Shown here: in pieces, positions 223 through 44,635 of the stretch
Layout of the letters: the number at the start of each line of letters is the position of its first letter
Numbering within the stretch: position 1 is the stretch's first letter
Source: a virus
Virus record (IMG/VR): IMGVR_UViG_3300025121_000030
Coordinates: 34,269 to 98,268 of that record
DNA: 64,000 nucleotides
Strand: one strand, 5' to 3'
Notes under the pieces: generated by a model
The model's input: only the letters and a program-made list of their open reading frames with translations
Database searches by the model: none
Told to the model about the DNA's origin: nothing
Translations under genes and position numbers: made by a program

Positions 223-324
223 GGGATAGATAAGGAAGTCATGAGCCTTATTGATAAGAGAATATCCGAGTTCTTTTCCCTTATTTAAAATTCTCGGAAA
301 ATAAAAATAATTGCTGTCGGAGGT
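223..324 (+). ncRNA. Structured leader RNA, copy 1
   Basis: P1 ggga/tccc; P2 ataagg/ccttat; P3 gagaat/gttctt. Loop tccga(g) is complementary to ctcgga (293-298) and to tcgga (317-321), which overlaps the RBS. Confidence 0.65.
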
Positions 325-332
325 AATAATTA

Positions 333-1991
333 ATGTTGCTAACAAAAGAAGTAGAAATTGGCTTAAGTGGAAGACATATTAAATGGTATAAAAATAAAGG
401 ATATATAATACCAAGGGAAAAAGATAATCAAGGAAGGTTGTCAGTTCCACAGAATACAAAAATATTAGTTAAAGTAGAGGATTTATTAGATAGTTATAAG
501 GTGCAAGTTGATATTGGATGTGATGAGTGTGGAGAATATTTAAAAACAATAGCATTGAATGATTATCGAAAATATATTAAAGACGATGAACAACATTATT
601 GTATAAATTGTTTTAATTCATTATATATTAATGGAATTAAAGCACAAGAAGTTAAGCAAATAATTAATAATAACTTAGGAGATACTTGGAAATTACTTAA
701 TGTTAAAATAATAAATACTCAAATTAATGTAGATTTAATTAATTCGGATGGATATATGTATAGTAAAATTAAAATTTCCAGCATAAAAAAAGGTTATATA
801 CCACAAGGGTTTTATAAATCTAATATATACATATATCAAAATATTAATAATTGGTGTAAAATAAATAATTATAATATTAGATTGAGTGATGAGTACATTG
901 GCTATGATGTAAAACTTAAATGGGAATGTTTAGACTGTAATCATATATTTGAAAGAAGTATGAATGCTATTACACGTGGGCAAGTGGGATGTTCTATTTG
1001 TGGAGATAATATTTCATACCCCAATAAGTTTGGACGTAATTTATTAAACCAATTAAATAATACATACAAATTAAAATATATAAAATTCGAATATTCACCG
1101 GATTGGATTAAACCTAAGAGATATGATAGTTATTTTGAATTTAATAATAAAAAATATATAATTGAAATGGATAGAGCATTGGGACATGGTAATAAAAAAA
1201 CATTAGATGGAACCACCCCTGAAGAATCTCAAGCTATAGATGATTATAAAGATAAAAAAGCAAAAGAACATAATATTAAGATGATTAGAATTGATTGTGT
1301 AAAATCAGATATGAAATATATTAGAGATAATATTTTAGTTAGTGGATTAGCACAGATATTTGATTTATCTAATATTGATTGGTTAAAATGTCATGAGTTT
1401 GCTTGTAACAATTTAGTAAAAGAAACATCTAAATTATGGAATGCTGGAATTAAAAATTCATCAGAAATTAGTGTTATTCTGAACTTAGGAAAGAGAACAG
1501 TTATAAGATATCTTAATGAATGTAGTAAATTGGGGTGGTGTGATTATGATGCCAATGAAATACAAAAAGCAAGTGGGGTAAGATTAGGAAAATCAGGGGC
1601 GAAACCAGTTGTTCAATTGTCGTTAAGTGGTGAATATGTTCAAGAATATAGTAGCATGGTTGAAGCTGAAAAACAAACAGGAATTATTATTATGAGTATT
1701 TCATCTTGTTGCAGAGGTAAATTAAAATCTGCTGGTGGATATCAATGGATGTTTCTTTCAGATTATAATAAAAGCGAAATAAAACAATATAAAAAATCTC
1801 CATATGTTAAAAAAGTTGTTCAACTATCACTAAATAAAGAATATATTTCGGAGTTTGATAGTATTATTGAAGCAGAAAGACAATTAAAAATAAATCATTC
1901 AAATATTTCTTCTTGTTGTCTTGGTAAATATAATCATGCAGGTGGTTTTAAATGGATGTACAAATCAGATTATGAAAAATTAGTTGGATAG
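333..1991 (+). CDS. Free-standing homing endonuclease-like protein (Zn ribbons, PD-(D/E)XK-like nuclease, two NUMOD1-like C-terminal repeats)
   Basis: CxxC pairs; RYDSYF..IIEMD nuclease-like motif; repeated VVQLSL..EAE..ISSCC.GK..AGG..W units; paralog of 36842..38305. Confidence 0.8.
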   Translation: MLLTKEVEIGLSGRHIKWYKNKGYIIPREKDNQGRLSVPQNTKILVKVEDLLDSYKVQVDIGCDECGEYLKTIALNDYRKYIKDDEQHYCINCFNSLYINGIKAQEVKQIINNNLGDTWKLLNVKIINTQINVDLINSDGYMYSKIKISSIKKGYIPQGFYKSNIYIYQNINNWCKINNYNIRLSDEYIGYDVKLKWECLDCNHIFERSMNAITRGQVGCSICGDNISYPNKFGRNLLNQLNNTYKLKYIKFEYSPDWIKPKRYDSYFEFNNKKYIIEMDRALGHGNKKTLDGTTPEESQAIDDYKDKKAKEHNIKMIRIDCVKSDMKYIRDNILVSGLAQIFDLSNIDWLKCHEFACNNLVKETSKLWNAGIKNSSEISVILNLGKRTVIRYLNECSKLGWCDYDANEIQKASGVRLGKSGAKPVVQLSLSGEYVQEYSSMVEAEKQTGIIIMSISSCCRGKLKSAGGYQWMFLSDYNKSEIKQYKKSPYVKKVVQLSLNKEYISEFDSIIEAERQLKINHSNISSCCLGKYNHAGGFKWMYKSDYEKLVG

Positions 1992-2021
1992 AATAAAAAT
2001 ACAATAATATAAAAGTAAGTT

Positions 2022-2048
2022 AAAGACTATATGTTTATAGTCTTTTTT
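2022..2048 (+). terminator. Rho-independent terminator
   Basis: aaagactata-tgtt-tatagtcttt followed by a T-run. Confidence 0.7.
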
Positions 2049-2087
2049 ATTTGTAATAAATAACAACAAAAAGTGAGTTGATAATAT

Positions 2088-2282
2088 ATGTACATAAAAA
2101 ATGCAGAACAAATATTTTCTAAAGATGAACTTTATTATTGTTATGATATTAAAATTAAAAATTTCTTATGTAATGTAAAAAATATTCAATATATAAAAAA
2201 AAGTAAAGGAGAAGGTAAATTTTATTGGATATTTTTGATGAGTGATGAATTAGAAATTTATTTAAAGGAATGGAATAGTTAG
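2088..2282 (+). CDS. Small hypothetical protein (DUF5659-like)
   Basis: 64 aa; YCYD..FL...YWIF...L..W pattern common in large Bacillota phages. Confidence 0.55.
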   Translation: MYIKNAEQIFSKDELYYCYDIKIKNFLCNVKNIQYIKKSKGEGKFYWIFLMSDELEIYLKEWNS

Positions 2283-2379
2283 AAAAAATAATTTTAAAGA
2301 AGTTAAAACTAAATTAACTTCTTTTTTTATTGATAATTTTAATTTCGATTTAACCAATTTAAAGGAGGTGAGTTAATTT

Positions 2380-4341
2380 GTGAGTGAAATAGTAAAATTT
2401 AATTGTGATAAATTTACTATAATAAGAGATGATCCTAGATTTTTGGTTTGTAAATTTTTCTTTGGACTTATCGGTTCTAACTATAATGGTAGTGTAATCG
2501 AAAAGGAAGATTATGAAAATAATAAAAATTTTATAGGATACACGCCGATTTGTGGTAAATTTAAAAATGGAGATTTTAAAGAACATGAAATTGATGAATA
2601 TCCGTTAGGTAGTATATTAAGTTTAGAAGATTGTGAATATGGGTATGAAATATATGAAAATCTTGAGTATGCCACAGCATTAGGCGTGATCCAAAAAGAA
2701 TACCTCACAAAGGAATCCGAGAATATTCTCAAAAGTGGCACAAAAAAAATAAGTATAGAAATTGAAGTTCTTAAAAAAGAAAAACTATCTAGTGGTAAGT
2801 TTAGGTTTAAGGAGTGGATTTATCAGTGTATAACTATTCTAGGAGATAAACTAGAAATAGCAACTGGTATGAAAAACGCACATCTTGAAGTTTTAAATAA
2901 ACCAAGAGAAGCATATGCAAGTTTTTGTAAAAGTACAATAGAAACTTTTGCAAAACAAGACACAGACAATAAATTTCAGTTAGGTGATTCCGTAATACCA
3001 ACAGAATTACACATGCCAGAACACGAAGGTAAAACAGGAATAATTTCAGAAGTAAAAAATGGCTATTATTATGCAATTAAATTTATTGGCGATGAAGAAC
3101 AGCATGAGTGGTATGCAGAAGATGAATTAAAAATTTTTAAGAATGAAGAATTTTCAGTTGGAATTGAATTAGGTAAATCTAATTCAATTGAAATAAAAAA
3201 TGATAAAGATAATTCTGTTGTTGGTGATTGGGAAGATCCTGGAGCGAAGATGTTAAATAGTCTACTTAAAGCAAGCAATCATGCTTCGCTTATAAAAGAA
3301 GCATATTTAATTATTGATGAAAATGTAGATAATGATTTATCTGTTAATAATGTCCATTATCCACATCATATTATAAATGATGGTAATTTAGTGGTACATT
3401 ATAGGGGAATTCAATCTGCATTAAGCAGAGCAAGAGCACAAGGTATAACTGGTAGTCCTATATCACATTTAAAAAAACATTATAAACAATTGGGTCTTAA
3501 TATGGATAACTTTGAAAAATTTAATTTAACTAAAGAAGATTATAGTTATCTATTTGAAGATATAAATAATTTTAAAGAAAGTGAGGTAGATAAGGTGGTA
3601 TTTAATAAGGAAGAGTTTGCAAAAAATTTTAATGCAGTAGCAAATGAAATGTGGGGTAATATAGTCAATGCTAGTGAAATAAAAGCAGAAGATTTAAAGG
3701 CATTTGCAAAAGAAATTCTTACTGAAGAATTTAATAGTTTTGCTAAAATAAAAGTAGATGAAAAAAATGTGGAATTTATTCAAGAAAAAGAAACTTTACA
3801 ATCTACTTTTGAATCTGAAAAAGAAACTATTAAAGCAGAATTTATTACTAAATCAGAAGAATTTACTACACAATTAGCGGAATTCACCACTCAATTAGAA
3901 GAAAAACAAAATTCTATTGTTTCTTTAGGTCAAGAACTAGATGGTTTAAAAGAACAATATTCTGCCAAAGAAACAGAAATTGAAACTTTTAAATCTGAAG
4001 TTGAGACTTATAAAACAGAGAATGAGATTCTTAAAACTGATATTGTTAATTTTGCTAAAGAAAAGAAAGAAACTCAAGCAGAAATTATTCTTTCTAAATT
4101 CGCAAAGAAAATTAATGAAGATGAAAGAAAAGATTTATTTGGTAAACTTGAAAAATTTAATACTGTTGAAGAATTTGAGAAAGAAGTTAAAGCTTTTGTT
4201 TGTGATAAATATGAAGCTGAAACTAAAGGAAAGAAAGATTTTGCAAGTTATTCTCGTATGGGAATTGTTGTAACAAATGAAACTAAGCCTGAAGGTGAAC
4301 ATTGGACTGATTATGTAAAAGATTATCAAGAAAAAAATTAA
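2380..4341 (+). CDS. Prohead protease/scaffold protein (SPbeta YonD-like) with inserted domains
   Basis: RBS aaggaggtg; N-terminal NYNGS..TPICG..ISIEIEV..CITILG protease-like region; long acidic coiled-coil C-terminus; position before the capsid genes. Confidence 0.75.
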   Translation: MSEIVKFNCDKFTIIRDDPRFLVCKFFFGLIGSNYNGSVIEKEDYENNKNFIGYTPICGKFKNGDFKEHEIDEYPLGSILSLEDCEYGYEIYENLEYATALGVIQKEYLTKESENILKSGTKKISIEIEVLKKEKLSSGKFRFKEWIYQCITILGDKLEIATGMKNAHLEVLNKPREAYASFCKSTIETFAKQDTDNKFQLGDSVIPTELHMPEHEGKTGIISEVKNGYYYAIKFIGDEEQHEWYAEDELKIFKNEEFSVGIELGKSNSIEIKNDKDNSVVGDWEDPGAKMLNSLLKASNHASLIKEAYLIIDENVDNDLSVNNVHYPHHIINDGNLVVHYRGIQSALSRARAQGITGSPISHLKKHYKQLGLNMDNFEKFNLTKEDYSYLFEDINNFKESEVDKVVFNKEEFAKNFNAVANEMWGNIVNASEIKAEDLKAFAKEILTEEFNSFAKIKVDEKNVEFIQEKETLQSTFESEKETIKAEFITKSEEFTTQLAEFTTQLEEKQNSIVSLGQELDGLKEQYSAKETEIETFKSEVETYKTENEILKTDIVNFAKEKKETQAEIILSKFAKKINEDERKDLFGKLEKFNTVEEFEKEVKAFVCDKYEAETKGKKDFASYSRMGIVVTNETKPEGEHWTDYVKDYQEKN

Positions 4342-4367
4342 ATTAATATTTAAAGGAGGAATTTTTA

Positions 4368-12939: not shown

Positions 12940-13045
12940 AAATAAACAGGGATAGTTAAGAGTTGTGATTTTAATGATAAGAGTGTATCGCAACCTCTCT
13001 TCTCTGTTTATTTGTTTTTTGTTGCGAAACACTAGTTGTGAGGTG
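12940..13045 (+). ncRNA. Structured leader RNA, copy 2
   Basis: P1 aaataaacaggga/tctctgtttattt. Loop tcgcaac pairs with gttgcga (13021-27) and gttgtga (13035-41, at the RBS). Confidence 0.65.
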
Positions 13046-13066
13046 ATTATTAATGAGTAATTATTA

Positions 13067-14230
13067 ATGAGTAATTATGTAAAAAGAGATCAAAATGAAT
13101 ATGATAATAATTTTAAAAACATTATTGAAAAATATACTGATCCAAAATATTTAACAACAAAAGGGTTTAGTAGTATGTCTGAAATTTCATCCCATAGTTA
13201 TACTGTAGTTTTTAAGACTAATTGGTATGATTTATTAAAAAAATATGGTGAATTTGACAGGCTTTATCAATATGTTAAAAATGAATTTATTGAGTTTGCA
13301 AAATTAACAAAAATTACAAGTTTAGATAAATTTGTTCAACAGCATACTTGTTTGACTAAAGATTTTTTAAGGTATATAGATAATAAATTATTTAAAGATG
13401 AATGTAAAGTTTCTAAAAAATACACAAAAGAAATGTTGGAAGATAATTTTTCAGATGTAAGGAATAAATTAGGAAGAGTTCCAAATCATTCTGAGTTTAT
13501 TAAAATGAGTAAAATACATCCAAAAACATATAGGCAATTTTTTAATTTGTCTGGTCAAGTATGGGAAGATATTTTAAGGTATTTTGTTTCTGAAGAAGAA
13601 ATTAATGAGTTTAATACATATCAAGCAGAATACAGAAAACAAATTGCTATTGCAGCTTCACAAAAGGAATATATTTATTCTAATGAAGAATTAGAGAAAG
13701 AATTAAAAATAATTTTTGATTATTATTACAAAGAATTTAATGTATATCCTAGTAGAAGACTATTTAATAAGATATCTAAATTCCATGATTTACTATATCG
13801 TGAAAGATTTAATATGAAATGGTCAGAAGTATGTAAAATGTATGGATATGAAATAGATACAAATAACAGCAAGTCAGAGAAAATATTTTTACAATTGGTT
13901 GATGAATTATTAAAAAGTAAGAATAAAACACAGAAAACCTTTGATTGGTTAAGAAATGAAGCAGGAAACAAATTAAAAATAGATGGATTCTATCAAGATT
14001 ATAATCTTGCAATAGAGTTTGATGGTGTTCATCATAGGAAGCCAGTGGCAAATTATGGTGGTATGGAGAGATACTTAAAGCAAGTTGCTAATGACAAAAT
14101 AAAAGATGATTTAATTCCACAACATGGATTAAAATTAATTCGTATTGACAGTCGTGAATCTTGGCATGACAAAGATTATCTTAAACAAAGATTAATAGAT
14201 GCTGGAATAGAGATTCCACAAATAGCATAA
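13067..14230 (+). CDS. Homing endonuclease-like protein (repeats plus C-terminal PD-(D/E)XK/Vsr-like nuclease)
   Basis: KLGRVP / YPS repeats; SKSE..F, LKIDGFY..LAIEFDGVHH, LIRID motifs. Confidence 0.75.
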   Translation: MSNYVKRDQNEYDNNFKNIIEKYTDPKYLTTKGFSSMSEISSHSYTVVFKTNWYDLLKKYGEFDRLYQYVKNEFIEFAKLTKITSLDKFVQQHTCLTKDFLRYIDNKLFKDECKVSKKYTKEMLEDNFSDVRNKLGRVPNHSEFIKMSKIHPKTYRQFFNLSGQVWEDILRYFVSEEEINEFNTYQAEYRKQIAIAASQKEYIYSNEELEKELKIIFDYYYKEFNVYPSRRLFNKISKFHDLLYRERFNMKWSEVCKMYGYEIDTNNSKSEKIFLQLVDELLKSKNKTQKTFDWLRNEAGNKLKIDGFYQDYNLAIEFDGVHHRKPVANYGGMERYLKQVANDKIKDDLIPQHGLKLIRIDSRESWHDKDYLKQRLIDAGIEIPQIA

Positions 14231-20793: not shown

Positions 20794-21906
20794 TTGGCTT
20801 CAATTAAAATATATAAAAATCCAACAGGAGATATTGATGGCGATTTAGTCAGTACGGAAGACTGGACATCGCCAGTAGATTCTGGATTTCTCCTTATCCC
20901 AGAAACAGGATCAGAAAGCGTAATTGGAGAATGGAAAAAATGTGCTTTAAGGTGTAATGAAGGTCTCCAGACGATAAATGACCTAAACAGAAATTGCAGA
21001 CTGACGTTAGAAGGATTAAAATCCACATGCTGGCAACTTGCGAGTGATATCAATGGTTTTCCAAATTCTACCCCTTCTGATTGGGGTCAACCATTAGATA
21101 TAGTGTCTGATAAAATTTATGATAAAAATTACATTTTTTGGGTAAGAGCCTGTACTGATGTGGGTGATATCGTAGAGAACGACAAAACTACTAAACTTGT
21201 GGCTCAAGCTCTTGTAGGATTACCGTGGACTTTAGACATAGATGATATGATTTCCGAACCTGATGTAAATGTAGTTTTTTCAAACATAGTAACAATTCCA
21301 GAAGACTGTATTATATATGCGTTAAATGTAGATGCTACCAATCCGGCTTATATTCTTAAATACATTATAAATGGTGAAGAGTTAACAATAGGTCATATGG
21401 GAGATCCTACTTTCGAATGGATTCATCAAGCATTAAGTGTTTCTAAAGATTCAACTTTTCAAATATATTTAGGTGGAGTTTTTGGGAATGAAATAGGTGG
21501 GGATTTAAAACTATTTTTAAATAATGAGAATGGAAAAGAACTATCTTATTTTCATTGGTATGTTTATGCTTGTTATCTTACTACAGCATGTGTTAAATAT
21601 AAAGGATTAGAGGATGATTGTTCTGAGTTGACTGCAATGAGGTTATTAAGAGAGCATTATATTAATGATCCTGAATATAGAGAATTAATTAGAGAATATT
21701 ATCAATTGGCTTCTCAAATTGTTAAAGCTATAGACCAAGAAGATGATCCTAGTTTGGTTTATGAACAAATTTATCAGAGTGTTAAGATTTGTGAAAATGC
21801 AGTTAATAGTGGAGATTGGCAAACTGCTAGAGATGAATATTTGAGTATGTATTATGAGTTGGCAGAGACTTATATAGAGGATTATATTAGGTTGATGGTT
21901 TTGTAG
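20794..21906 (+). CDS. Family A domain + variable domain + CFI-box-CTERM-like domain
   Basis: C-terminal CYLTTACVKYKGLEDDCSELTAMRLLREHY...EYYQLA. Confidence 0.65.
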   Translation: MASIKIYKNPTGDIDGDLVSTEDWTSPVDSGFLLIPETGSESVIGEWKKCALRCNEGLQTINDLNRNCRLTLEGLKSTCWQLASDINGFPNSTPSDWGQPLDIVSDKIYDKNYIFWVRACTDVGDIVENDKTTKLVAQALVGLPWTLDIDDMISEPDVNVVFSNIVTIPEDCIIYALNVDATNPAYILKYIINGEELTIGHMGDPTFEWIHQALSVSKDSTFQIYLGGVFGNEIGGDLKLFLNNENGKELSYFHWYVYACYLTTACVKYKGLEDDCSELTAMRLLREHYINDPEYRELIREYYQLASQIVKAIDQEDDPSLVYEQIYQSVKICENAVNSGDWQTARDEYLSMYYELAETYIEDYIRLMVL

Positions 21907-21935
21907 TAAGTTTAATTAAATATAAAGTTTATTTT

Positions 21936-22044
21936 TAGAAGGGTAAGTTCGGGAGTTATAAACCTGAATGAATCGCAAAACTCCGATTGCGATACCCCTT
22001 CTATTTTTATTTGTCTATTTATCGGAGAAAATTAAGACGGAGGT
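21936..22044 (+). ncRNA. Structured leader RNA, copy 3
   Basis: P1 tagaaggg/cccttcta; P2 gttcggg/cctgaat; P3 atcgcaa/ttgcgat. Loop ctccga pairs with tcggag (22022-27) and cggag at the RBS. Confidence 0.7.
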
Positions 22045-22051
22045 TGATTAA

Positions 22052-23242
22052 GTGAGTGATGAATTAAAGGGTAAAAGTGGTATTTATAAGATTGTAAATT
22101 TGGTTAATGGAAAGTTATATGTTGGGAGTACAGTTAATTTATATAATAGAAAATCTCAGCATTTTAGTAGTCTTATGACAAATTGTCATAAAAATCCGTA
22201 TTTACAAAATGCATTTAATAAATATGGAATTAATACTTTTAAATTTGAAGTATTAGAATATGTAGAAGATGTTGATAAGTTAATAGAACGAGAACAATAT
22301 TATTTAGATATTTATTTTGATAATAAAAATAAGTGTTATAATGTTTTACCAACGGCAGGTTCCCCATTGGGTGTAAAACATTCTGATGAAACGAAATTAA
22401 AGTTAGCAATTACTGGAGGAGCAAAACCTTTTTATGTTTTTAAAGACAGAGAGTTTATAGGAGAATGGATAAATTCATCAGAATGCAGTAGAAATTTAGA
22501 TATAAATTATTCTGGTTATATTCGTAAGTGTTTAAAAGGTAAACAAAATATGTTTAATGGTTATATTTTTATTTATAAGGATGAATATAACGAAGATAAA
22601 TTAAAAGAAATTTATGAAATGGTTGAGTCAAAACCGTTTTTAGTTTTTGAAAAATATACAGAAAATTTTATTGGAGAATATGACACAATAAATAAATGCA
22701 TGATAGATTTAAATATAAATATAAAAAGCGATGGTGATATTAGGAAATATTTAAAAGATAAAACTTATTCTGTGAATAATTATATTTTTATATATAAACA
22801 TGAATATGCAGAAGATAAAGTAAAAGAATTATGTAATATAAACTTAAATGCCAAGCCATTTTATGTTTATAAAAAAGATGATAAAAAATTTGTTGGTAAG
22901 TTTAGTTTGCAACAAGAATGCGCAAAAGAATTAAATATAGACGCATCTAATATTAGTGGTTGTTTAAGAAAAAAACATTATTTTGCAAAAGGATATGTTT
23001 TTATTTATGAAGAAGATTATTCTGAAGAAAAATTAAATGAATTATGTAATAAAACTCAAAGTTTAAAATTTTTGAAATATGAATTTGAGGTACATGAAAA
23101 AAATACAAACAAATTTATAGGTATTTATGATAGCCAAGTAGATTGCGCTAATGAATTAGGATTAAACCATAAAAGTATTAGTAATTGCCTTTGTGGAAAA
23201 CAAATATCAACTGGTGGTTATATTTTTGAAAAAGTTTCTTAA
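22052..23242 (+). CDS. GIY-YIG homing endonuclease
   Basis: SGIYKIVNLVNGKLYVGS; REQYYLD; YN; NUMOD3-like HSDETKLK; repeated C-terminal DNA-binding units. Confidence 0.9.
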   Translation: MSDELKGKSGIYKIVNLVNGKLYVGSTVNLYNRKSQHFSSLMTNCHKNPYLQNAFNKYGINTFKFEVLEYVEDVDKLIEREQYYLDIYFDNKNKCYNVLPTAGSPLGVKHSDETKLKLAITGGAKPFYVFKDREFIGEWINSSECSRNLDINYSGYIRKCLKGKQNMFNGYIFIYKDEYNEDKLKEIYEMVESKPFLVFEKYTENFIGEYDTINKCMIDLNINIKSDGDIRKYLKDKTYSVNNYIFIYKHEYAEDKVKELCNINLNAKPFYVYKKDDKKFVGKFSLQQECAKELNIDASNISGCLRKKHYFAKGYVFIYEEDYSEEKLNELCNKTQSLKFLKYEFEVHEKNTNKFIGIYDSQVDCANELGLNHKSISNCLCGKQISTGGYIFEKVS

Positions 23243-23281
23243 TTAAGATATAAAAATAAATTTGAGAGGAGTGAAATAAAT

Positions 23282-24043
23282 TTGGCTTATCATATAGCAA
23301 TTTATCGTGACAATCCTACCGTAAACTTAACTGATGGAACAATAGTTTCAGAGAATGATTTTTCTAACCCGGTTGATTCAAATCACATATCTATTCCAGC
23401 AACAGGGAGTACAAATGGTAACTGGGTGAAACTTGCTGTACGTTGCGATGAAGGAACAGAAACTATTTTTGACTTAAATCGTCACGCTAGGATCAGTTTA
23501 GATGGTTCTGGCAATACAAATTGGCAACTAGCTGAAGATAATAGTGGTTCTCCATCAAGTACACCACTAGATTGGGGATTACCTTTAGACATAACAGAAA
23601 TTATAACTGATACTAACTATATATTCTGGACTCGTGCAAAAGCAAATTCCACTGAAAGCGTTTCTAATGACACTTCAATTGAAATAATTGCACAGGCTTT
23701 AGTAGGTAATCAGCCTTGGACTTGGAACATATCTGACATGAGTGTAGTAGAAGGGATAGGAGAAGCAACTGAGTCTATTATAATACCAGAAGATTGTACT
23801 TTATATTATACTGTAACAGGGGATATGCCAACTTTTGCAGTTTATACTGTTGGTGGAGATGCATTAAATGGTTGGATAATATGGATTTCTAATTACGATG
23901 TTAGAACATTTAGTTTTATTAAAGATCAAGTGGTTGCTGTATCAATATTATATTCTAATTCTGGAACTACTGGTACTCATATAATAAGAGAAAACGATGA
24001 GAATGGAAGAATAATTGCACAGTTTAATGTAACATGTACATAA
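23282..24043 (+). CDS. Family A domain + variable domain
   Basis: Clear paralog of the N-terminal two-thirds of 20794; lacks the CFI-box domain. Confidence 0.65.
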   Translation: MAYHIAIYRDNPTVNLTDGTIVSENDFSNPVDSNHISIPATGSTNGNWVKLAVRCDEGTETIFDLNRHARISLDGSGNTNWQLAEDNSGSPSSTPLDWGLPLDITEIITDTNYIFWTRAKANSTESVSNDTSIEIIAQALVGNQPWTWNISDMSVVEGIGEATESIIIPEDCTLYYTVTGDMPTFAVYTVGGDALNGWIIWISNYDVRTFSFIKDQVVAVSILYSNSGTTGTHIIRENDENGRIIAQFNVTCT

Positions 24044-24077
24044 AAAATATTGAAAACAGAATATAAAAGTTTATTTT

Positions 24078-24195
24078 TAGAAGGGTAAGTTTGAGATTAG
24101 CTGTCTTAGACGATGCACAAAACTCCAATTGTGTCCCTTCTATTTTTATTTGTGTAAAAATATGTGAGTTTTGGAGAAATCAAATTTATGGAGGT
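24078..24195 (+). ncRNA. Structured leader RNA, copy 4
   Basis: Same P1 as copy 3; P2 gtttgaga/tcttagac; P3 gcacaa/ttgtgt. Loop ctccaa pairs with ttggag (24171-76) and tggag at the RBS. Confidence 0.7.
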
Positions 24196-24207
24196 TGATT
24201 GTATTAA

Positions 24208-25341
24208 ATGAGTGATGAAGTAATGTTTGGTAGTATTTATAAGATAACTAATAAAATAAATAATAAGGTTTATATTGGGCAAACTGTACAGCCATTAAAT
24301 TATAGATGGACAGGACATTGTTCTAATGCAAATATGGGAATAGATACTCATTTTTGTCGTGCAATACGCAAATATGGTAAAGATAATTTTATAATTGAAG
24401 AAATTGAAAAAGTTTCTATCGACCAATTAGATGATGTAGAAATAAAATGGATTGCTTATTATGATAGTTATAATAATGGTTATAACAGTACATTAGGTGG
24501 TGGAGGCAATAAGGGTTGTGACTTAGATGAATCTGAAGTTATTGATCATTATTTAAAATGTAAAAATGCGTATATAACAGCGGAGTTTTTTGGATGTAGC
24601 ATAAGTCCAATATATAGTATATTACGTAAAAATGGTATTAAAAATAAAGATTTAGACCATGATGAAGTGATTAAATATTATTTAGATTGTAGGTCAACTT
24701 TTAAAACAGCAGAGTTTTTTGGTGTTAATGATGAAACAATTCGTAAAATTCTTGTTAAAAATGATATAAAAAGAGATGGTCATACTAGATATGATTTAGA
24801 TGAAGAAGAGATAATAAATTATTATTTGGAATGTAAATCAATAGAAGATACTGTAAAACATTTTGGGCACTATCATGAAGCTATAAGTAAAATTCTTAAT
24901 AATAATAATATTGAAAGACTTAGAAAAACACGATCACGTTTCATATGGGATGAAAATGGAAATAAAAAATATCTAAATGAAGAAGAAGTGATTAATTATT
25001 ATCTTGATTGTAGATTAATATATAAAACTGCTGAATATTTTAAATGTTGTTTAAAAGCTGTAAGTGATATTCTCAACAATAATAATGTAGACAGATCAGA
25101 AGATTCTATATCAGTATATGCCATAGATAAAAATGGTAATAGATATGATTTTGATGATATTAAAGATGCTGTTGATTATTTAATTAAAAATGGTAATTCA
25201 AAGATTATTAGTAGACCAAAAGAGAATGCATATAAACAAGCAATTAATAAAACCGCAAGAGGAGAAAAGAAAACTGCATATGGTTTAAAGTGGTATTACA
25301 AAGAAAATAATGAAGATACTTTATTAGAAAATGTAATTTGA
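24208..25341 (+). CDS. GIY-YIG homing endonuclease with tandem HTH-like repeats
   Basis: GSIYKITNKINNKVYIGQT; E..WI..YDSY.NGYN.T.GG; four LD.EE.I.YYL.C....TAE.F repeats. Confidence 0.9.
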   Translation: MSDEVMFGSIYKITNKINNKVYIGQTVQPLNYRWTGHCSNANMGIDTHFCRAIRKYGKDNFIIEEIEKVSIDQLDDVEIKWIAYYDSYNNGYNSTLGGGGNKGCDLDESEVIDHYLKCKNAYITAEFFGCSISPIYSILRKNGIKNKDLDHDEVIKYYLDCRSTFKTAEFFGVNDETIRKILVKNDIKRDGHTRYDLDEEEIINYYLECKSIEDTVKHFGHYHEAISKILNNNNIERLRKTRSRFIWDENGNKKYLNEEEVINYYLDCRLIYKTAEYFKCCLKAVSDILNNNNVDRSEDSISVYAIDKNGNRYDFDDIKDAVDYLIKNGNSKIISRPKENAYKQAINKTARGEKKTAYGLKWYYKENNEDTLLENVI

Positions 25342-25383
25342 TTACATATTAAAAAATATATTAAGAAAGGAATGATTTAAATT

Positions 25384-25821
25384 ATGGCTTTAATTAATAT
25401 TTATAAAGGCACAGATATTACTTCTGGAGGCACTGAGGGAACTCTTGTGTCTAGCGGGGATAATAGCAATTCAATAGAAACTGGATATATTAAGATTCCA
25501 GCATCTGGTTTTACTGAATCAGAATGGGTAAAAATTGGGATTCGTTGCACAACAGGACATAAGACAATTCTTGAAAACTCTAGACACGCTAGAGTATCTA
25601 TAACCGATTCAGGAGATGTAACTCGTTGGCAGTTAGCTTTAGATGATTCGGGAAGTCCTTCAGGTTCACCATCTGCATATGGAAGTCCTTTAGATTTTAC
25701 TAGTGAGATAGGGAGTACAAATGTAATTTTCTGGATAAGAGCTAAGGCTGAATCAAGTGAGGTTCCAGTTAACTCAACGCAAGTCAAGGTAACTTTATCA
25801 GCGACCATAGGTGCTGTGTAA
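25384..25821 (+). CDS. Virion structural protein, paralog family A
   Basis: INIYK..GGTEGTLVS..IRC..G..WQLALD..NVIFWIRAKA. Confidence 0.65.
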   Translation: MALINIYKGTDITSGGTEGTLVSSGDNSNSIETGYIKIPASGFTESEWVKIGIRCTTGHKTILENSRHARVSITDSGDVTRWQLALDDSGSPSGSPSAYGSPLDFTSEIGSTNVIFWIRAKAESSEVPVNSTQVKVTLSATIGAV

Positions 25822-29482: not shown

Positions 29483-29587
29483 ATGGTTTCTGTATGAGGT
29501 TCTAAACTTATATAGAGTAAAACGAAGACACTGTACTGCTTTACAGTGTCTTTATCCATTTGTAAATCTTTTTATGCAGAAAAGGAG
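29483..29587 (+). ncRNA. Structured leader RNA, copy 5 (divergent)
   Basis: P2 tctgtatgag/cttatataga; P3 aagacactgta/tacagtgtctt. Loop ctgc pairs with gcag (29576-79) next to the RBS. Confidence 0.45.
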
Positions 29588-36721: not shown

Positions 36722-36832
36722 ATAAGAGATAGGTTAAGACTGATCATCTTAATCGAAAAGAGTGGATATCCTTGTAACTCCACTCTTCTTTTATTTTAAA
36801 AAAAACAAGGAAAACAATAAAACATCAAGGAG
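36722..36832 (+). ncRNA. Structured leader RNA, copy 6
   Basis: P2 ggttaaga/tcttaatc; P3 aagagtgga/tccactctt. Loop tccttgt pairs with acaagga (36805-11) and caagga (36826-31, RBS). Confidence 0.7.
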
Positions 36833-36841: not shown

Positions 36842-38305
36842 TTGGGATTGGTAAGTACAGAAGTTTGGGTTGGTTTAAATGGAAGTAGTATTAAACATTT
36901 TGAAGAAAAGGGATATGAAATACCTAGATATAAAAATAAAAATAGCAAATTATGTGTTAAAGAACATACAAAAATATTAGTAAAAATTAAAGATTTATCA
37001 GAACATAGTAATGTCAAAGTTGATGTAGAATGTGACGGATGTGGTAAAAAATTAAAAAACGTAGTATGGCAGGATTATTTAAAACGTATTGTTAAAAATG
37101 ATGGTAAATATTATTGTTTACAATGTGCAACTAAGGATAATGGAATTCAAACTAGACTTAAAGAAAATGAAATCAGAAATATAGTAGATGAAAAACTAGG
37201 AAAAGATTGGATAATAGAAAAAATTGAAATAATAAAAAATAATACGTTTATAACTTTAATTGACCCTGATGGATATTGGTATAGCAATGTAAAAACACGA
37301 GTTATAAAAAGAGACATATTCCCTAGAAAATTTCATTTACAAAATATATATGCAAAACAAAATGTGAATAATTGGTTTAAATTAAATAATTTGAATATGA
37401 AATTAATTGAAGAATACAAAGGAACAACCAAAAAAGTTAAAATTAAATGCTTAGAATGCAATAATTCTTTTAAACGCTCATTCGATAGTATTAAAAGTGG
37501 AATAACATCGTGTCCAAATTGTAGTGATGGTATTAGTTACCCGGAAAAATTAGGGAATTCATTTTTTAATCAAATAGGTATTAATTATATTTATAATTCT
37601 AAATTAAAATGGTCTGAAAATAAAAAATATGATTTTACATGTGAAGGCTTTAAAATTGTGGTTGAAATGCATGGTTTACAACATTATGAAGAAACCAATT
37701 GGGGGAATACGGGTGCAAGAACTTTAAAAGAAGAACAAGAAAGCGATAGATTAAAAAAAGAATTAGCAGAGAAAAATGGATATAAATATATAGAAATTGA
37801 TTGTAGAAAATCAGATTTAGATTGGATAAAGAATAGTATTATGAATAGTGAATTAGCTAATATATTTGATTTATCTAAAATAAATTGGTTACAATGTCAT
37901 GAATATGCTTGTAGTAGTTTGGTTAAAGTAGCATGTGATTTGTGGAATAATTGTGTAGAAAACACAATGAAAATTGGGGAAATAATGCAATTACATAATT
38001 CCACCATTTCAAAATATTTAAAACAAGGTGTAAAATTAGGTTGGTGTGATTACAATGTAAAAAAAATAAAAAATAATAATGGTAAAAAAATTAGTAATTT
38101 TGCAAAAATAAAATTTAGTAAGTCAGTAGTTCAATTAGATTTAAATGATAATTTTATTAAAGAATTTGAAAGTGGTACAGAAGCAGGAAGACAAACAGGA
38201 ATAAAGCAAGCTACCATTTCTTTATGTTGTAGAAAAGCTCCTCATGCAAAAACGGCAGGTGGATATAAATGGATGTTTAAGAATGATTATAATTTAATTA
38301 GTTAA
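36842..38305 (+). CDS. Homing endonuclease-like protein (paralog of 333..1991)
   Basis: Same N-terminal Zn ribbon; ISYPEK, KYDF..VVEMHGLQHY, IDCRKS motifs; NUMOD1-like C-terminus. Confidence 0.8.
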   Translation: MGLVSTEVWVGLNGSSIKHFEEKGYEIPRYKNKNSKLCVKEHTKILVKIKDLSEHSNVKVDVECDGCGKKLKNVVWQDYLKRIVKNDGKYYCLQCATKDNGIQTRLKENEIRNIVDEKLGKDWIIEKIEIIKNNTFITLIDPDGYWYSNVKTRVIKRDIFPRKFHLQNIYAKQNVNNWFKLNNLNMKLIEEYKGTTKKVKIKCLECNNSFKRSFDSIKSGITSCPNCSDGISYPEKLGNSFFNQIGINYIYNSKLKWSENKKYDFTCEGFKIVVEMHGLQHYEETNWGNTGARTLKEEQESDRLKKELAEKNGYKYIEIDCRKSDLDWIKNSIMNSELANIFDLSKINWLQCHEYACSSLVKVACDLWNNCVENTMKIGEIMQLHNSTISKYLKQGVKLGWCDYNVKKIKNNNGKKISNFAKIKFSKSVVQLDLNDNFIKEFESGTEAGRQTGIKQATISLCCRKAPHAKTAGGYKWMFKNDYNLIS

Positions 38306-39270: not shown

Positions 39271-39287
39271 AAGGAGGAGTGAAATAA

Positions 39288-40843: not shown

Positions 40844-41170
40844 ATGGCAAGTTTAATATATAGTGTTCTACATGACGCTACGACAACTATATCAGACGGG
40901 AAAATTATAAACATTAAAGAAGCAAAAGAATTAGGTTTATCAATAAGCGGAACATCAACTTCATTTACAGTAGAATTTTATGGGAGTATTGATGGTGTTA
41001 ATTATGATTTAATTGAAGGATCAAAAATGTCAAATAGTTTACCATTTATAACATCAACAATATCTGTTGGATTATTTTCAATTGATATTGCAGCTTTAGT
41101 TTATTTTAAAGCTAAAATTAGTGCTATTGCTAATGGGAATGTGTCTGTTACAGCACATGCAATAATTTAG
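40844..41170 (+). CDS. Small virion protein, paralog family B
   Basis: FYGSIDGVNY...GLFSIDIAAL..FKA..GNVSV. Confidence 0.6.
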   Translation: MASLIYSVLHDATTTISDGKIINIKEAKELGLSISGTSTSFTVEFYGSIDGVNYDLIEGSKMSNSLPFITSTISVGLFSIDIAALVYFKAKISAIANGNVSVTAHAII

Positions 41171-41191
41171 TGAATAAGGATGTGATAATAT

Positions 41192-41983
41192 ATGACTTTA
41201 AAAATAGTAGGTAATGTCAATGCTCAACTAACTGGTAGTAGAGGTTCGGTTATTGCGCATAGAACAGCGATAACTACAGCGGATAAAGTGCCTGTAATTA
41301 CTATAACCGCCGCAGATTCAGTAACAGCAGGAACGTTAACTGCTGTCAGTCATGGTATCGGTGTTGCTCCAGGAAATTCCTACGGTTCCGCTGGCGTATC
41401 TGCTTTGGTGACTGTTACGCCTACAGTAAATAAAAGTATAGATATAACTATTCCGCAATCCGCAGGTGCAGAACACTATGATATTTTTCTTTCTACGGCA
41501 ACTACCGCCCCGTTATGGGTAGTAAGAGTAACTGAGACGCAGAGGGAAACGGGTTGTGCTATTACGGCTGTTGGTACAGTTGGTGCAGGTGGTTCAGCAG
41601 GAATTGTAAACGTGCAGGTTGTTGGCACTGGCCTAGCAAGTACGGCAGTATTTTTTATAGCGAATAATGCTTATGTTTTTGGTAGTATAGGGGCGATTTC
41701 CTGTGTAGGAAAAACAAAGGCTTACATTTACGTGAAACCAATTCTAACGGATTTACGCTCTGCGCCTTCTGTTAGTATAATACCGTTTTTCCGTAAAAAC
41801 GACACTTCGGATGATTGGTACGCTGTGGAGGCACAATCAATAACTCTTTTAGGTGGTATAAGCGGTCAACCACTTAATCAAGTAGTAGTGATAGATGTTA
41901 ATTCAGTACGCAATTTAATTGTTTTGGTCGATTTAATATCTGGTGAAGGAACCACAGTAAATATTGATGTGGAACTATATTAG
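41192..41983 (+). CDS. Hypothetical virion protein (higher-GC cassette)
   Basis: Ala/Gly/Thr/Val-rich; GC visibly above background. Confidence 0.6.
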   Translation: MTLKIVGNVNAQLTGSRGSVIAHRTAITTADKVPVITITAADSVTAGTLTAVSHGIGVAPGNSYGSAGVSALVTVTPTVNKSIDITIPQSAGAEHYDIFLSTATTAPLWVVRVTETQRETGCAITAVGTVGAGGSAGIVNVQVVGTGLASTAVFFIANNAYVFGSIGAISCVGKTKAYIYVKPILTDLRSAPSVSIIPFFRKNDTSDDWYAVEAQSITLLGGISGQPLNQVVVIDVNSVRNLIVLVDLISGEGTTVNIDVELY

Positions 41984-41994
41984 GTGGTGCTAAT

Positions 41995-42714
41995 ATGAAA
42001 ATTCTAACCACCCCACCAATGATAAGAGGCCTAGAGGGTATAAACAGAGATGACCTACTTGCGGAGTACCGTTGTGATGAATTAGGCGATACCCTAATTG
42101 ATTATTCGGGAAACGGCAATCACGGAACTTTTGGTATTGGTGGAAATAAACCAACAAGAACGCCTTTTGGAATAGATTTTTATGATGATTACATAACCTT
42201 GCCCGACACAATCAAAAACGCTTTGTCAGTCCAAAATGATTTTACAATTATTACTGCCGGGATTGCTAGTGGTGGGAGTATTTTGGGTTCAGCAGTTAGT
42301 GCTACGGACAGACTACTTCTTAATGCCTCTCCTGGCATATCAACAAACTTAAGTCCATACTTGAAATATATGAGAGGGTGCTTAAATATTGGGCCGACAA
42401 CAGTAACGCAATTAGCAAAAGCGGCAGGTTCGTTTGATTTATATAAACTACATGTTTTTGCCTATGGGTATAGTAAGTTTTTCGATAAGGGAAAAATGAT
42501 TATTGATAAGGAATTATACGGGCACATATCGGCTGCTAACCCCTCTACTGTCGTAGGGTGCCGTGTTGGTGCACAGACAAACGGTGCTCCGTTTTGGGTT
42601 GGTACGTTGTATTATATGCTTATATATTCAAAGTTTCTTAGTAATAGCATGGTGCAAAAACAGCACAGAGTTATTAAAAAAATTTTAAAACAAAGAGGTG
42701 TTATTTTACCATGA
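41995..42714 (+). CDS. LamG/concanavalin-like domain protein
   Basis: LLAEY....LIDYSGNGNHGT...DDYI...FTII...G.LYY..IYSK.LS pattern. Confidence 0.7.
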   Translation: MKILTTPPMIRGLEGINRDDLLAEYRCDELGDTLIDYSGNGNHGTFGIGGNKPTRTPFGIDFYDDYITLPDTIKNALSVQNDFTIITAGIASGGSILGSAVSATDRLLLNASPGISTNLSPYLKYMRGCLNIGPTTVTQLAKAAGSFDLYKLHVFAYGYSKFFDKGKMIIDKELYGHISAANPSTVVGCRVGAQTNGAPFWVGTLYYMLIYSKFLSNSMVQKQHRVIKKILKQRGVILP

Positions 42715-42944
42715 TATTTTATTATATCATTTGGCCAAGCTTGGAAAGTTTTGAGAGCACAGAAGTACCATTGCCTAGTGGTCAAATACTTGGCGATCCT
42801 AAAGTGGATATATACGGTCGCAGACTATCCCGGTATGACGAAACACAACTCACTCAGGCAGATTTAGACTATTTCAACAGCATGGACGGCGTAATTGTTC
42901 AGACGTATCCACCGGAACCTTGGATTGAACCTGAATACGAATAA
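42711..42944 (+). CDS. Small acidic hypothetical protein
   Basis: RBS gaggtg; ATGA overlap; ends W..PE, resembling fibre-associated small proteins. Confidence 0.55.
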   Translation: MIFYYIIWPSLESFESTEVPLPSGQILGDPKVDIYGRRLSRYDETQLTQADLDYFNSMDGVIVQTYPPEPWIEPEYE

Positions 42945-43056
42945 GACAATTAATGAAGGTGCGAGAGTTCGGTTATTCATATAGTAGATAATTAGATATT
43001 TAATACATAGTAATTGTATATTTTTTTTATATTTATAATCAATTTATAATAGTAAT

Positions 43057-43113
43057 ATAAAAATAACTAGGTAAGATTAGAGTTTAATATATCTCCTACC
43101 TAGTTATTTTTAT
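43057..43113. terminator. Long hairpin/bidirectional terminator
   Basis: tataaaaataactaggta...tacctagttatttttata. Confidence 0.6.
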
Positions 43114-43125
43114 ATATTTTTACAT

Positions 43126-43159
43126 TTTTCATGACAAAAGCGTTATTTCGTGATGATTT
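43126..43159. repeat. Imperfect palindromic site, copy b
   Basis: tcatg-acaaaa-gcgtta-tttcgt-gatga; same format as 33963. Confidence 0.5.
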
Positions 43160-43318
43160 ATGATTATTTTGGAGTGAAGAAACCCTTGAAATATAAGGGT
43201 TTTATTTTTTGTGATTTTAGAGAAATTTAAATTAGAGATAACTACCTTAGTTTTTTAGGGTGGTTATTTTTGTTTTAAAGATAAATTTATTATTAATTAA
43301 AGATTAAGGAGTGTTTAT

Positions 43319-43813
43319 ATGGCAAGATCGAAATTTAATGTAAATACCTCATCAAAATCAAAAGAAAAAAGAACATTAAATGGATACACTTTTTCAAGTG
43401 ATTTGGAATATAAATTCTATGTTTATCTCCTATCAAAACAAGAAAAAGGAATAGTTAAAAATATAACAATTCAACCTAGATATTTACTTCAAAAAAAATT
43501 TGTTAAACATGGTAAGATATATCAGCCAATTTACTATATTCCAGATTTTGAAGTAGAGTATATAAATGGAGATATAATAAATTTCGACACAAAAGGATTT
43601 TCTACACCAGATTTTTTACTTAAGGCCAAGATTTGGAATTACGTCTACCCTGATAAAGTTTTAAGAGTTATAAATTATAGTAAAATTGATGGCAATGATG
43701 AAAATGAAGGATGGTGCGATGTAAAAGTTATTGAGAAAGGAAGAAAAGAGAGAAAGAAAGCAAAGGAATTAAAAAATAAATTAAAAAAATATAAAAATAA
43801 AACGGAGGATTGA
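43319..43813 (+). CDS. DUF1064-family PD-(D/E)XK nuclease-like protein
   Basis: SKFN..GYTFSS..E..Y..L..QPRYLLQ..Y.PDF...DTKG..T. Confidence 0.75.
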   Translation: MARSKFNVNTSSKSKEKRTLNGYTFSSDLEYKFYVYLLSKQEKGIVKNITIQPRYLLQKKFVKHGKIYQPIYYIPDFEVEYINGDIINFDTKGFSTPDFLLKAKIWNYVYPDKVLRVINYSKIDGNDENEGWCDVKVIEKGRKERKKAKELKNKLKKYKNKTED

Positions 43814-43820
43814 TTCAAAC

Positions 43821-44438
43821 ATGTCAAAAAATAAACCATTAACCCTTAGTACATTAAAAAAATTGGATGCACAATTAAATGAAACATTGCAAGTAACTTT
43901 ATCAAATTCTAGTACTATTCTATTTGATTTACATTTTCGTCAAACTATTATTGAAGAAGTTTTCAACAAATTAATTTCAATAAATAAACTTATACAAGAA
44001 GATGAAACTTTAAAAAATTTCCCAATGGATAGGTACACACAATTATTAATTATTACTCATTTTACATCTTTGAAGAATATTGAAACTAAAACATTGTCAG
44101 ATGAATTAGAATTAATGAATCAATTGATAGATTTGGATTTATTTAAAGAGATATTAGAGAAAATGGAGATTGAAATACCTGATGAAATTAAGAAATTTAA
44201 TGAGAAAATATTTGAGATAATGCAGGAAAAATTGGATAGTCTGAAGCAACAAGAGGAATTTATGAGGTTAATGAATGAAGAAATGGAAAAACAGAAAATG
44301 ATTGGTGATGTTGAATTAGTGGACAATAGTTTGGTTGATAAAAGTGATAATATTATAGATATTGTTTCTGATAAGACAGATGAAATTGTGACGGATGAAG
44401 TGGATGAAGTAGTTAGTAAGATTGAAATTACAGAATAA
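43821..44438 (+). CDS. Putative tail assembly chaperone (YomO-like)
   Basis: LTL..LKK N-terminus; II.HFTSL motif; synteny. Confidence 0.5.
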   Translation: MSKNKPLTLSTLKKLDAQLNETLQVTLSNSSTILFDLHFRQTIIEEVFNKLISINKLIQEDETLKNFPMDRYTQLLIITHFTSLKNIETKTLSDELELMNQLIDLDLFKEILEKMEIEIPDEIKKFNEKIFEIMQEKLDSLKQQEEFMRLMNEEMEKQKMIGDVELVDNSLVDKSDNIIDIVSDKTDEIVTDEVDEVVSKIEITE

Positions 44439-44535
44439 TAAAATAAATAATAAGTACAATAATTATAATAACAATATTTCAATAGATTAAAGGACATTTC
44501 TTAATTGATGTGTCCTTATTTGTGTTGAAATACAC

Positions 44536-44635
44536 AATGAGCAAACTAGGGTCGCTCCCGAAAAGTGAATCCTTACACCTGTTTGCTTATTAATATTTTA
44601 TATAAGGAAATCAAAAATAAAAACAATAAAAGGAG
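44536..44635 (+). ncRNA. Structured leader RNA, copy 7
   Basis: P1 aatgagcaaac/gtttgcttatt; P2 ggg/ccc; P3 gtg/cac. Loop tcctta pairs with taagga (44603-08) and aagga at the RBS. Confidence 0.7.

Follow-up and report, generated by a model that had tools for sequence, protein, structure and literature searches.

A three-way-junction leader RNA of the int-alpA kind, with two downstream complements of one loop, recurs ahead of homing-endonuclease-like genes in a phage record

Introduction

Why should a phage place the same small RNA fold ahead of six different genes, each time with a loop code of its own? The question is raised by a 64-kb stretch of viral DNA (the window: bases 34269-98268 of the 98,268-bp IMG/VR virus record IMGVR_UViG_3300025121_000030), where a leader RNA whose three-way junction spans about 50-75 nucleotides (nt) occurs in six copies. 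The loop of its third helix is complementary to two sites further downstream, a proximal one (site A) and a second one close to the start codon (site B). The best reading is that each copy forms the 5' module of a self-contained cassette, in which a promoter and the junction RNA with its U-rich tail are followed by the two sites, A and B, with an A-rich spacer between them, and then by the gene, in most cases one for a free-standing homing endonuclease. Judged from these elements, the leader most likely limits the amount of the downstream protein. With a probability of roughly 0.5, it would do so as an RNA brake on translation start, probably exerted in trans by a short terminated RNA and providing delayed, copy-specific negative feedback.

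The leader copies

All six copies follow a common plan that can be read directly in the sequence: a closing helix (P1), a UAG or UAAG linker, the P2 hairpin (loop L2), a linker of the GA(U/A)A type, the P3 hairpin (loop L3), the 3' strand of P1 and a U-rich tail. They are present where an earlier note on this DNA had claimed them (the junctions begin at 223, 12944, 21936, 24078, 36722 and 44539), and every loop/site pair that it described was found, the second site of copy 2 requiring one G.U pair. The features are listed below (SD, Shine-Dalgarno sequence; ORF, open reading frame).

188-216, plus strand: copy 1, sigma-70-type promoter; TTGACA 188-193, 17-nt spacer, TATAAT 211-216, 6 nt to the first G of P1
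223-280, plus strand: copy 1, three-way junction; L2 palindrome UCAUGA, L3 UAUCCGAG
293-298, plus strand: copy 1, site A, CUCGGA
317-323, plus strand: copy 1, site B, UCGGA, overlapping the SD GGAGG
333-1991, plus strand: copy 1, gene; ORF with NUMOD1, DUF4379 and HNH/homing-endonuclease phrogs
12944-13009, plus strand: copy 2, three-way junction; L2 UUGUGA (palindromic with G.U pairs), L3 UGUAUCGCAACCU
13021-13027, plus strand: copy 2, site A, GUUGCGA
13035-13046, plus strand: copy 2, site B, GUUGUGA (one G.U pair), overlapping the SD GAGGUGA
13067-14230, plus strand: copy 2, gene; ORF with HNH/homing-endonuclease phrogs
21936-22003, plus strand: copy 3, three-way junction; L2 UUAUAA, L3 AACUCCGA
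22021-22027, plus strand: copy 3, site A, AUCGGAG (UCGGAG from 22022)
22038-22043, plus strand: copy 3, site B, CGGAG(G), which is the SD
22052-23242, plus strand: copy 3, gene; ORF with GIY-YIG and NUMOD1
24078-24142, plus strand: copy 4, three-way junction; L2 UAGCUG (palindromic with G.U pairs), L3 AACUCCAA
24171-24176, plus strand: copy 4, site A, UUGGAG
24189-24194, plus strand: copy 4, site B, UGGAG(G), which is the SD
24208-25341, plus strand: copy 4, gene; ORF with GIY-YIG
36722-36794, plus strand: copy 5, three-way junction; L2 UGAUCA, L3 UAUCCUUGUAAC
36805-36811, plus strand: copy 5, site A, ACAAGGA
36826-36832, plus strand: copy 5, site B, CAAGGA(G), which is the SD
36842-38305, plus strand: copy 5, gene; ORF with NUMOD1, DUF4379 and homing-endonuclease phrogs
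44539-44588, plus strand: copy 6, three-way junction of int-alpA type; L2 UCGCU (no palindrome), L3 AAUCCUUA
44603-44608, plus strand: copy 6, site A, UAAGGA
44630-44635, plus strand: copy 6, site B, AAGGA(G), which is the SD
44645-46471, plus strand: copy 6, gene; ORF with a primase-type zinc ribbon, phrog_25531

In copies 1, 3, 4 and 5, the three-way junction has the lowest free energy of all predicted folds, whereas copies 2 and 6 reach it as a suboptimal fold. The linkers J1/2 and J2/3 read UAG and UGAUA in copies 1 and 2, UAAG and UGAA in copy 3, UAAG and CGAUG in copy 4, UAGG and UCGAAA in copy 5, and UA and GAAAA in copy 6. The genes behind copies 1-5 are all homing-endonuclease-like: two encode GIY-YIG proteins, two NUMOD1 and DUF4379 proteins, and one a protein with HNH/homing-endonuclease phrogs. 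The gene behind copy 6 is not evidently a homing endonuclease nor an insert, and the suggestion that all the leaders precede inserted genes is not supported there. A "weaker copy" that had been proposed at 29483 has to be dropped: it scores 7.0 and 8.0 bits with two of the RNA models described below, no complement of 5 nt or longer to its loop is present in its leader, and the sequence looks like a strong hairpin of the simple kind. An RNA-model search of the other 34 kb of the 98-kb record revealed no additional copy.

Two of the leaders contain short upstream ORFs. At copy 2, a 14-nt tandem duplication at the gene start (13046-13073) creates a 4-codon frame, from the ATG at 13053 to a TAA at 13065-13067, whose stop overlaps the true ATG at 13067 (TAATG). 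The SD and site B now serve this mini-ORF, and therefore the nuclease would be produced only by re-initiation. The copy-4 leader holds a 7-codon frame at 24188-24211 (ATGGAGGTT...TGA), the stop codon of which shares bases with the ATG of the endonuclease gene at 24208. This upstream ORF has its ATG 11 nt past the GGAG of site A, and the homologous codon in copy 3 is ACG.

Relatives in viral contigs and covariation of the fold

Does the fold exist beyond this window? A covariance model built from copies 3 and 4 alone (R1) places copies 1, 2 and 5 within its top seven hits of the 64-kb window, and also picks up plain terminators. IMG/VR was scanned with two exact patterns that specified bases of the junction and stems and imposed nothing on L2, L3 or the leader. 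The yield was 51 matches in 50 contigs, 33 of them unique (relatives are given L numbers below); the first pattern was too loose, with only 8 of 116 matches real. A second covariance model (R2), built from three foreign viral-contig sequences only, ranks copies 2 and 1 highest, with 43.7 and 37.6 bits, followed by copies 5 and 3 with 21.9 and 21.3 bits and by copy 4 with 10.9 bits, and found extra leader copies on four contigs (L026, L133, L136 and L134). In the broader model R3, copy 4 was kept outside the training set and still reaches 22 bits.

Over 30 distinct rows, 99.2% of the stem cells are paired vs. 84.0% in shuffles, both sides change in 10 of 13 pairs and all five P2 pairs show compensatory changes, in an alignment that is fitted to the model and in which P1 and P3 are partly fixed by the search pattern. 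The stems thus covary. MAFFT alignments of the copies misplaced P3 and P1, because loop lengths differ, and were abandoned in favor of the model-based alignment.

Some further observations were made along the way. A symmetric hairpin at 43055-43115 has U-runs on both strands and resembles a bidirectional terminator; it owes its high rank with model R1 solely to the stem and the U-tail. The 179-kb contig L134 (IMGVR_UViG_3300037454_000603) carries GIY-YIG frames behind both of its leaders that are broken by in-frame TAG codons (for example, IYKITN-TAG-INGKVYIG-TAG), which suggests, from the sequence, that this phage reads TAG as a sense codon. Upstream of position 4778 on L134, a leader copy begins 12 nt past an apparent tRNA 3' end (GGTTCGAATCC...).

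Relation to the int-alpA RNA

Is the motif already named? The note had held that a strong Rfam hit would remove its novelty, and the outcome is mixed. At gathering thresholds, a HEARO RNA at 47826-48053 is the only Rfam match in the window. Below them, copy 6 matches int-alpA (RF02996, typed "Gene; sRNA" in Rfam) at 44539-44607 over the whole model with 32.4 bits, close to the gathering score of 35.8 bits (E-value 0.008 in the window and 1.3e-4 in a 1-kb search). Copies 1-5 have no Rfam match at E<=10, and eight relative loci from IMG/VR match no Rfam family at E<=1. All copies nonetheless share the int-alpA architecture.

The int-alpA consensus runs P1, UAG, P2, CGAAAAG, P3 with the loop aaCCuUua, CU, P1, a U run and uaAgGG, the last being the complement of the P3 loop; site A of copy 6 aligns with this tail. 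The element order is thus the same as here, including the U-rich tract after P1 and the word complementary to the P3 loop. Thalassomonas phage BA3, an int-alpA carrier, was chosen as a positive control, and its RNA (22885-22820, minus strand) gave 51.7 bits. It is flanked by the small-terminase gene and a gene with HNH_3 and AP2 domains, and its leader has L3 AAACCUCA, seven U, site A UGAGGU, then GAGGUGG (with site B GAGGU at the SD) and ATG. An accepted member of the family therefore also has a two-site leader ahead of an HNH homing-endonuclease-like gene.

Copies 1-5 form a group of their own (group I; GGGAUAG...UGAUAAGAG...CUCUUCCC), a sister group undetected by Rfam 15, and copy 6 falls with int-alpA proper, as a near-threshold member. 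The group models R2 and R3 miss both BA3 22885-22820 and copy 6 at E<=1 and E<=5, and since neither side's models detect the other, two sequence groups with one architecture are to be distinguished. Group I differs from int-alpA in that J3/1 is absent or short, P1 can be as short as 3-4 bp, and L2 has 7-10 nt with a six-base palindrome instead of a pentaloop. The distance is small at the junction, where the group-I GAUAAG and the int-alpA GAAAAG are one base apart, and some members look intermediate: copy 5 has the int-alpA linker CGAAAAG as its J2/3, and L137 and L161 combine group-I junctions with a UCGCU-type P2 pentaloop as in copy 6.

The motif is reportedly among the candidate RNAs of Weinberg and colleagues of 2017. 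The main text of that article contains no description of int-alpA (PMC5737381). Among the papers searched, none gave a prior function of the motif, int-alpA being named only in lists. The leader is therefore a known, functionally uncharacterized kind of RNA, and copies 1-5 extend the int-alpA class beyond Rfam detection.

The P3 loop and its two downstream sites

What distinguishes one copy from another is above all the loop L3. The window, IMG/VR and BA3 together supply 25 distinct L3 loops. All 25 are matched in the cognate leader by a perfect Watson-Crick complement of 6 nt or more, vs. 9.2% of non-cognate loop/leader pairings. Two sites of at least 5 nt are present for 20 of them (80%), compared with 6.0% of non-cognate pairings. 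The picture of a portable RNA module with its own loop code ahead of unrelated genes, put forward in the earlier note, is supported. In a cross-matrix of loops and leaders, each window loop finds its best match in its own leader; the partial cross-matches are due to the shared GGAG. Pairs in which the code differs include the following.

L3 GAACUGAGA: sites UCUCAGUUC and CUCAGUUC
L3 UAUGUCAACG: site GUUGACA, twice
L3 CCUCAC: site GUGAGG, twice
L3 UAACCACUCA: sites UGAGUGGUUA and GAGUGGU
L3 AAACAUCAAUCG: site GAUUGAU, twice

The positions of the sites are also constrained. Site A starts 10-34 nt past the closing helix, and site B ends 0-15 nt ahead of the start codon, including in Bacteroidota-type leaders without an SD, where B is not SD-like. 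Since site B is kept near the start codon even without an SD word, it marks the ribosome landing site, not the SD sequence as such. The predicted duplexes of L3 with site A have energies of about -6 to -15 kcal/mol and those with site B of about -5 to -13 kcal/mol, A usually being at least as strong as B. Pairing of L3 with site B very probably controls translation start.

Are these words read as RNA or as DNA? Operators of 6-10 nt, one inverted in the "loop" and two direct downstream, could be bound by a cassette-specific protein: I-TevI represses its own promoter by operator binding, and homing endonucleases carry DNA-binding domains (NUMOD1, NUMOD3, AP2, HTH). However, the helix whose loop always contains the inverted copy shows RNA-level covariation, and the substitutions keep G.U pairing. 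In L142 and L148, site A is GUUGGCA instead of GUUGACA, an A-to-G change that retains a G.U pair, and together with site B of copy 2 such changes fit RNA pairing, not a protein operator. Furthermore, one loop code can be followed by different proteins, L2 is the sole difference between some near-identical RNAs, and unrelated protein families would all need one three-site geometry. Operator function is scarcely credible against this background, and is the least probable of the explanations considered.

The P2 loop

The second hairpin of group I carries a different kind of signal. Its loop typically has 9 nt, made up of two purines, a six-base self-complementary word and one purine. The words UAAUUA, UUGCAA, UUAUAA, UAGCUA, UCAUGA and UGAUCA are palindromic, and UUGUGA and UAGCUG qualify with G.U pairs; copies 1-5 have five different ones. 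A Watson-Crick palindrome of at least 6 nt is found in 18 of 24 distinct P2 loops (75%), whereas shuffled loops give a mean of 8.8% and a maximum of 33%. Mirrored L2 columns are paired in 90.8% of cases vs. 69.5%, and none of 500 shuffles reaches the observed value. One mirrored pair is AU 13 times, CG five times, UA four times, GC three times and UG once. The central pair is AU 19 times, GC eight times and GU once; its two bases are adjacent and cannot pair within one loop, so what constrains them must be pairing of one molecule with another. The RNAs of L026 and L033 differ in nothing but the change from UAAUUA to UUGCAA. A second copy of the palindrome, sought in the leader as an alternative partner, was not found there. 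These patterns suggest that the L2 palindrome allows the RNAs to form dimers.

The layout is that of the kissing loop in the dimerization initiation site (DIS) of human immunodeficiency virus type 1 (HIV-1), likewise a nine-base loop with two purines, a six-base self-complementary word and a purine (AGUAAUUAA here, AAGCGCGCA there). The context is unrelated, and dimerization of the leader is deduced from covariation only. A 5-nt L2 (UCGCU or gAcgu) without a 6-nt palindrome is found in copy 6, L137, L161 and int-alpA proper.

Promoters, tail and mobility with the gene

Where does the transcript begin and end? The motif TTGACA-17-TATAAT lies 6-9 nt ahead of P1 in copy 1 and in the unrelated contigs L159, L162 and L161. 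A -7 box of Bacteroides type (TAnnTTTG) lies 4-5 nt ahead of P1 in 7 of 25 representatives. Copies 3 and 4 have TATAAA 8-9 nt ahead of P1, and no clear promoter is seen ahead of P1 in copies 2, 5 and 6. Promoter boxes that abut P1 argue that the transcript starts at P1 and that its 5' end is primary. Like the palindromic P2 loop, which is also absent from the earlier note, these promoters bear on the choice between action in cis and action in trans. On the other side, the closing junction stem of 3-8 bp is followed by a tail with a mean of 7.6 U per 12 nt, against a background T fraction of 0.31.

A junction closed by a stem and followed by a U-rich tail could be nothing but a terminator, an insulator or a 5' stabilizer that uncouples the cassette from its neighbors, the complementarity of loop and sites then having no regulatory role. 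That model R1 also picks up plain terminators agrees with this. It leaves unexplained, however, why 25 different loops have matched sites as against 9% of non-cognate pairings, and why G.U compensation is seen, and it is accordingly a highly improbable account.

Does the leader belong to the gene that it precedes? Contigs of four metagenomes were compared over 20800-25400 at 85% likeness. Two contigs of run X12 lack a segment around copy 3: one joins 21902 to 23263 with 4 letters between (shorter side 72 letters, depth 8), and the other joins 21897 to 23263 with 9 letters between (shorter side 21 letters).

21903-23262, plus strand: copy-3 cassette, absent from the related variant; 1360 bp with the TATAAA spacer, junction RNA, leader, GIY-YIG ORF and 20 nt beyond

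The cassette extends from the stop of the upstream gene to just short of the next gene. Its flanking genes (20794-21906 and 23282-24043) are paralogues, both of phrog_23562, and are adjacent in the cassette-free variant. Since this variant lacks exactly the leader and the GIY-YIG gene, the leader is part of the inserted cassette. This evidence, which is graded as moderate and concerns copy 3 only, points to a precise presence/absence polymorphism in which the leader would travel with its gene.

A model for the leader, and its rivals

How could these elements work together? Pairing of L3 with site B would block 30S binding and reduce translation of the nuclease. Many transcripts would stop at P1 and the U-rich tail, yielding a short RNA with a free L3. 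In the read-through mRNA, site A, which is closer and in most cases the stronger of the two, would occupy the leader's own L3, and site B would be open at first. As the short RNA accumulates, it would dock on the leader by L2:L2 kissing, and its L3 would close site B. The outcome would be a brief pulse of nuclease followed by a cassette-specific shut-off.

Alternatively, the leader may be a two-state switch acting purely in cis, which was the main idea of the earlier note: L3 on the decoy A would mean translation on, and L3 on B translation off, with no free RNA or dimer. The balance of the A and B energies could set a fixed low rate, or it could shift with temperature, protein or ribosome traffic. 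Both sites share the transcript with the loop, A is near enough for an H-type pseudoknot, the energies of A and B are similar, and neither copy 6 nor int-alpA proper has a palindromic L2. Such a switch, however, leaves unexplained the covarying L2 palindrome of intermolecular type and the conserved U-rich tail directly after P1. In addition, with A nearer and usually stronger, the default would be a free ribosome-binding site (RBS), and the loop would then have little effect. A device acting only in cis is rather unlikely.

Several points weigh against a brake exerted in trans by a short terminated RNA. An equilibrium of L3 between A and B, purely in cis, would account for most of the same sequence features. 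The sequence is the source from which termination at the tail, the short RNA, dimerization and the effect on translation are all deduced. A simple terminator scan of 21700-24400 found nothing at copies 3 and 4, and many relatives have a P1 of no more than 3-4 bp, so that the tail may serve as a linker instead of a terminator. Three leaders (L165, L075 and L134b) have a site B that exceeds site A in length. Members with a pentaloop lack the palindrome, so dimerization is not essential to the whole class. Finally, strict orthogonality of the five L2 words had to be rejected, for copies 1, 2 and 3 could cross-pair via G.U.

A more elaborate form of the trans-acting brake would use both loops as addresses. 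The short RNA and the leader would form a dimer through the palindromic L2 (U-N-N-N'-N'-A), and the two L3 loops of this dimer would clamp A and B, closing the RBS and giving each cassette a private feedback timer. Re-coding would take a change of 6-10 bases, and the scaffold would be reused across Firmicutes-type, Bacteroidota-type and Proteobacteria phages, also for non-nuclease genes (primase-like). This proposal is tentative, and less probable than the general one.

Why does such a leader matter? Free-standing homing endonucleases are among the commonest selfish genes of phages, and how they avoid harming their carrier is understood for no more than a few T4-type cases. The module points to a widespread portable RNA that moves with the nuclease gene, starts at the cassette promoter and has address loops that are easily re-coded, and the orphan family int-alpA gains a concrete, testable function. 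If the mechanism holds, a module of about 60 nt with such simple rules for loop and sites would lend itself, as a natural scaffold, to orthogonal control of translation. Were the dimer proposal true as well, the int-alpA class would amount to a large natural family of RNAs that repress translation as dimers and can be programmed.

Comparison with other regulatory RNAs

The closest functional parallel is offered by the C4-type RNAs of phages P1, P7 (c4) and P4 (CI). In P1 c4, one target covers the RBS, and where P1 and P7 diverge in the loop, the target has changed to match. The Rfam C4 model (RF01695) is also a P1-P2-P3 three-way junction with a long recognition loop, and the P4 CI control scores 74.9 bits. 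CI RNA pairs with two complementary sites, seqA and seqC, which flank the RNA (PMC4825925). The comparison with P1 C4 and P4 CI drawn before is therefore apt: in both cases a small phage three-way-junction RNA has a recognition loop complementary to two sites of the same unit. There are also differences. The C4 P1 has 17 bp and the RNA is processed from a precursor, whereas here promoters abut P1; the P4 sites lie upstream and downstream of the RNA, whereas here both are downstream; and C4 is known for lysogenic immunity, not for leaders of homing endonucleases. No C4 match was found in the window and seven small loci at E<=10. The leader may thus work like C4 and CI, by analogy, yet it lies outside the C4 family.

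Could the leader itself be an immunity RNA of this type? The junction would then be cut from longer transcripts (for example, by RNase P), and its pairing would lead to premature termination of transcription or to Rho-dependent polarity, as in P4 and P1, in place of a direct translational block. The shared fold and the two sites of CI would suit such a role, and so would the primase-like gene behind copy 6, CI RNA being the regulator of the P4 operon that contains the primase gene alpha. The window, however, has no C4 match at E<=10, and with a 5' end that promoter boxes assign to P1, processing on that side is unnecessary. Moreover, both sites are downstream with B on the RBS, and no terminator-like element stands between B and the gene. 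The idea also overlaps with the translational brake preferred here, because P1 c4 primarily blocks translation of icd. As a distinct explanation, it is improbable, more so than a switch acting in cis.

In phage T4, RBS-sequestering hairpins restrain the translation of homing-endonuclease genes (I-TevI, mobE), and late promoters inside the hairpin relieve the block. The likeness is that RNA pairing at the RBS restrains translation of a phage homing endonuclease. The T4-type hairpins are local and gene-specific, whereas the leader described here is a portable three-way junction with long-range loop pairing, a second site and a dimerization-type loop.

In IsrK of the Salmonella Gifsy-1 prophage, a single promoter yields two transcripts, a short terminated RNA and a read-through mRNA, the second of which is a target in trans of the first (PMC4825925). 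A short isoform acting on its own read-through mRNA is the arrangement proposed above for the leader. The parallel is confined to this logic, for in IsrK the read-through form is activated for translation, and the fold is unrelated (Rfam RF01394).

Other kinds of junction RNA were considered and rejected. The core of a hammerhead or other ribozyme does not agree with the junctions, which misfit CUGAUGA/GAAA in every circular permutation, and there is no Rfam ribozyme match. A purine-riboswitch-like junction has no Rfam match either. A triplex of the U/C-rich tail in the groove of P1/P3 is contradicted by tails that do not mirror the purine strand (GGG-AAGAG would need CCC-UUCUC), and also by int-alpA proper, which lacks a purine-rich strand.

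The virus record and an IscB unit

The record is linear, about 66% complete and AT-rich, and its plus strand carries nearly all long ORFs. Its DNA occurs in metagenomes from groundwater, soil and sediment, and no RNA run was found to contain it. The genes around the leaders, a putative highly expressed late operon in the earlier note, mostly have annotations without function, with one virion structural protein among them. Window segments compared with the INPHARED phage set by megablast and tblastn gave no match, and the copy-3 GIY-YIG protein, used as a single query against viral contigs, found no relatives there.

The HEARO RNA (the omega RNA of IscB) at window positions 47826-48053 scores 147 bits, well over its cut-off, and is directly followed by an ORF of 448 amino acids with RRXRR and HNH domains (IscB-like). 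The phage record thus apparently carries an IscB unit, which spans 47826-49419 of the window and is complete by appearance.

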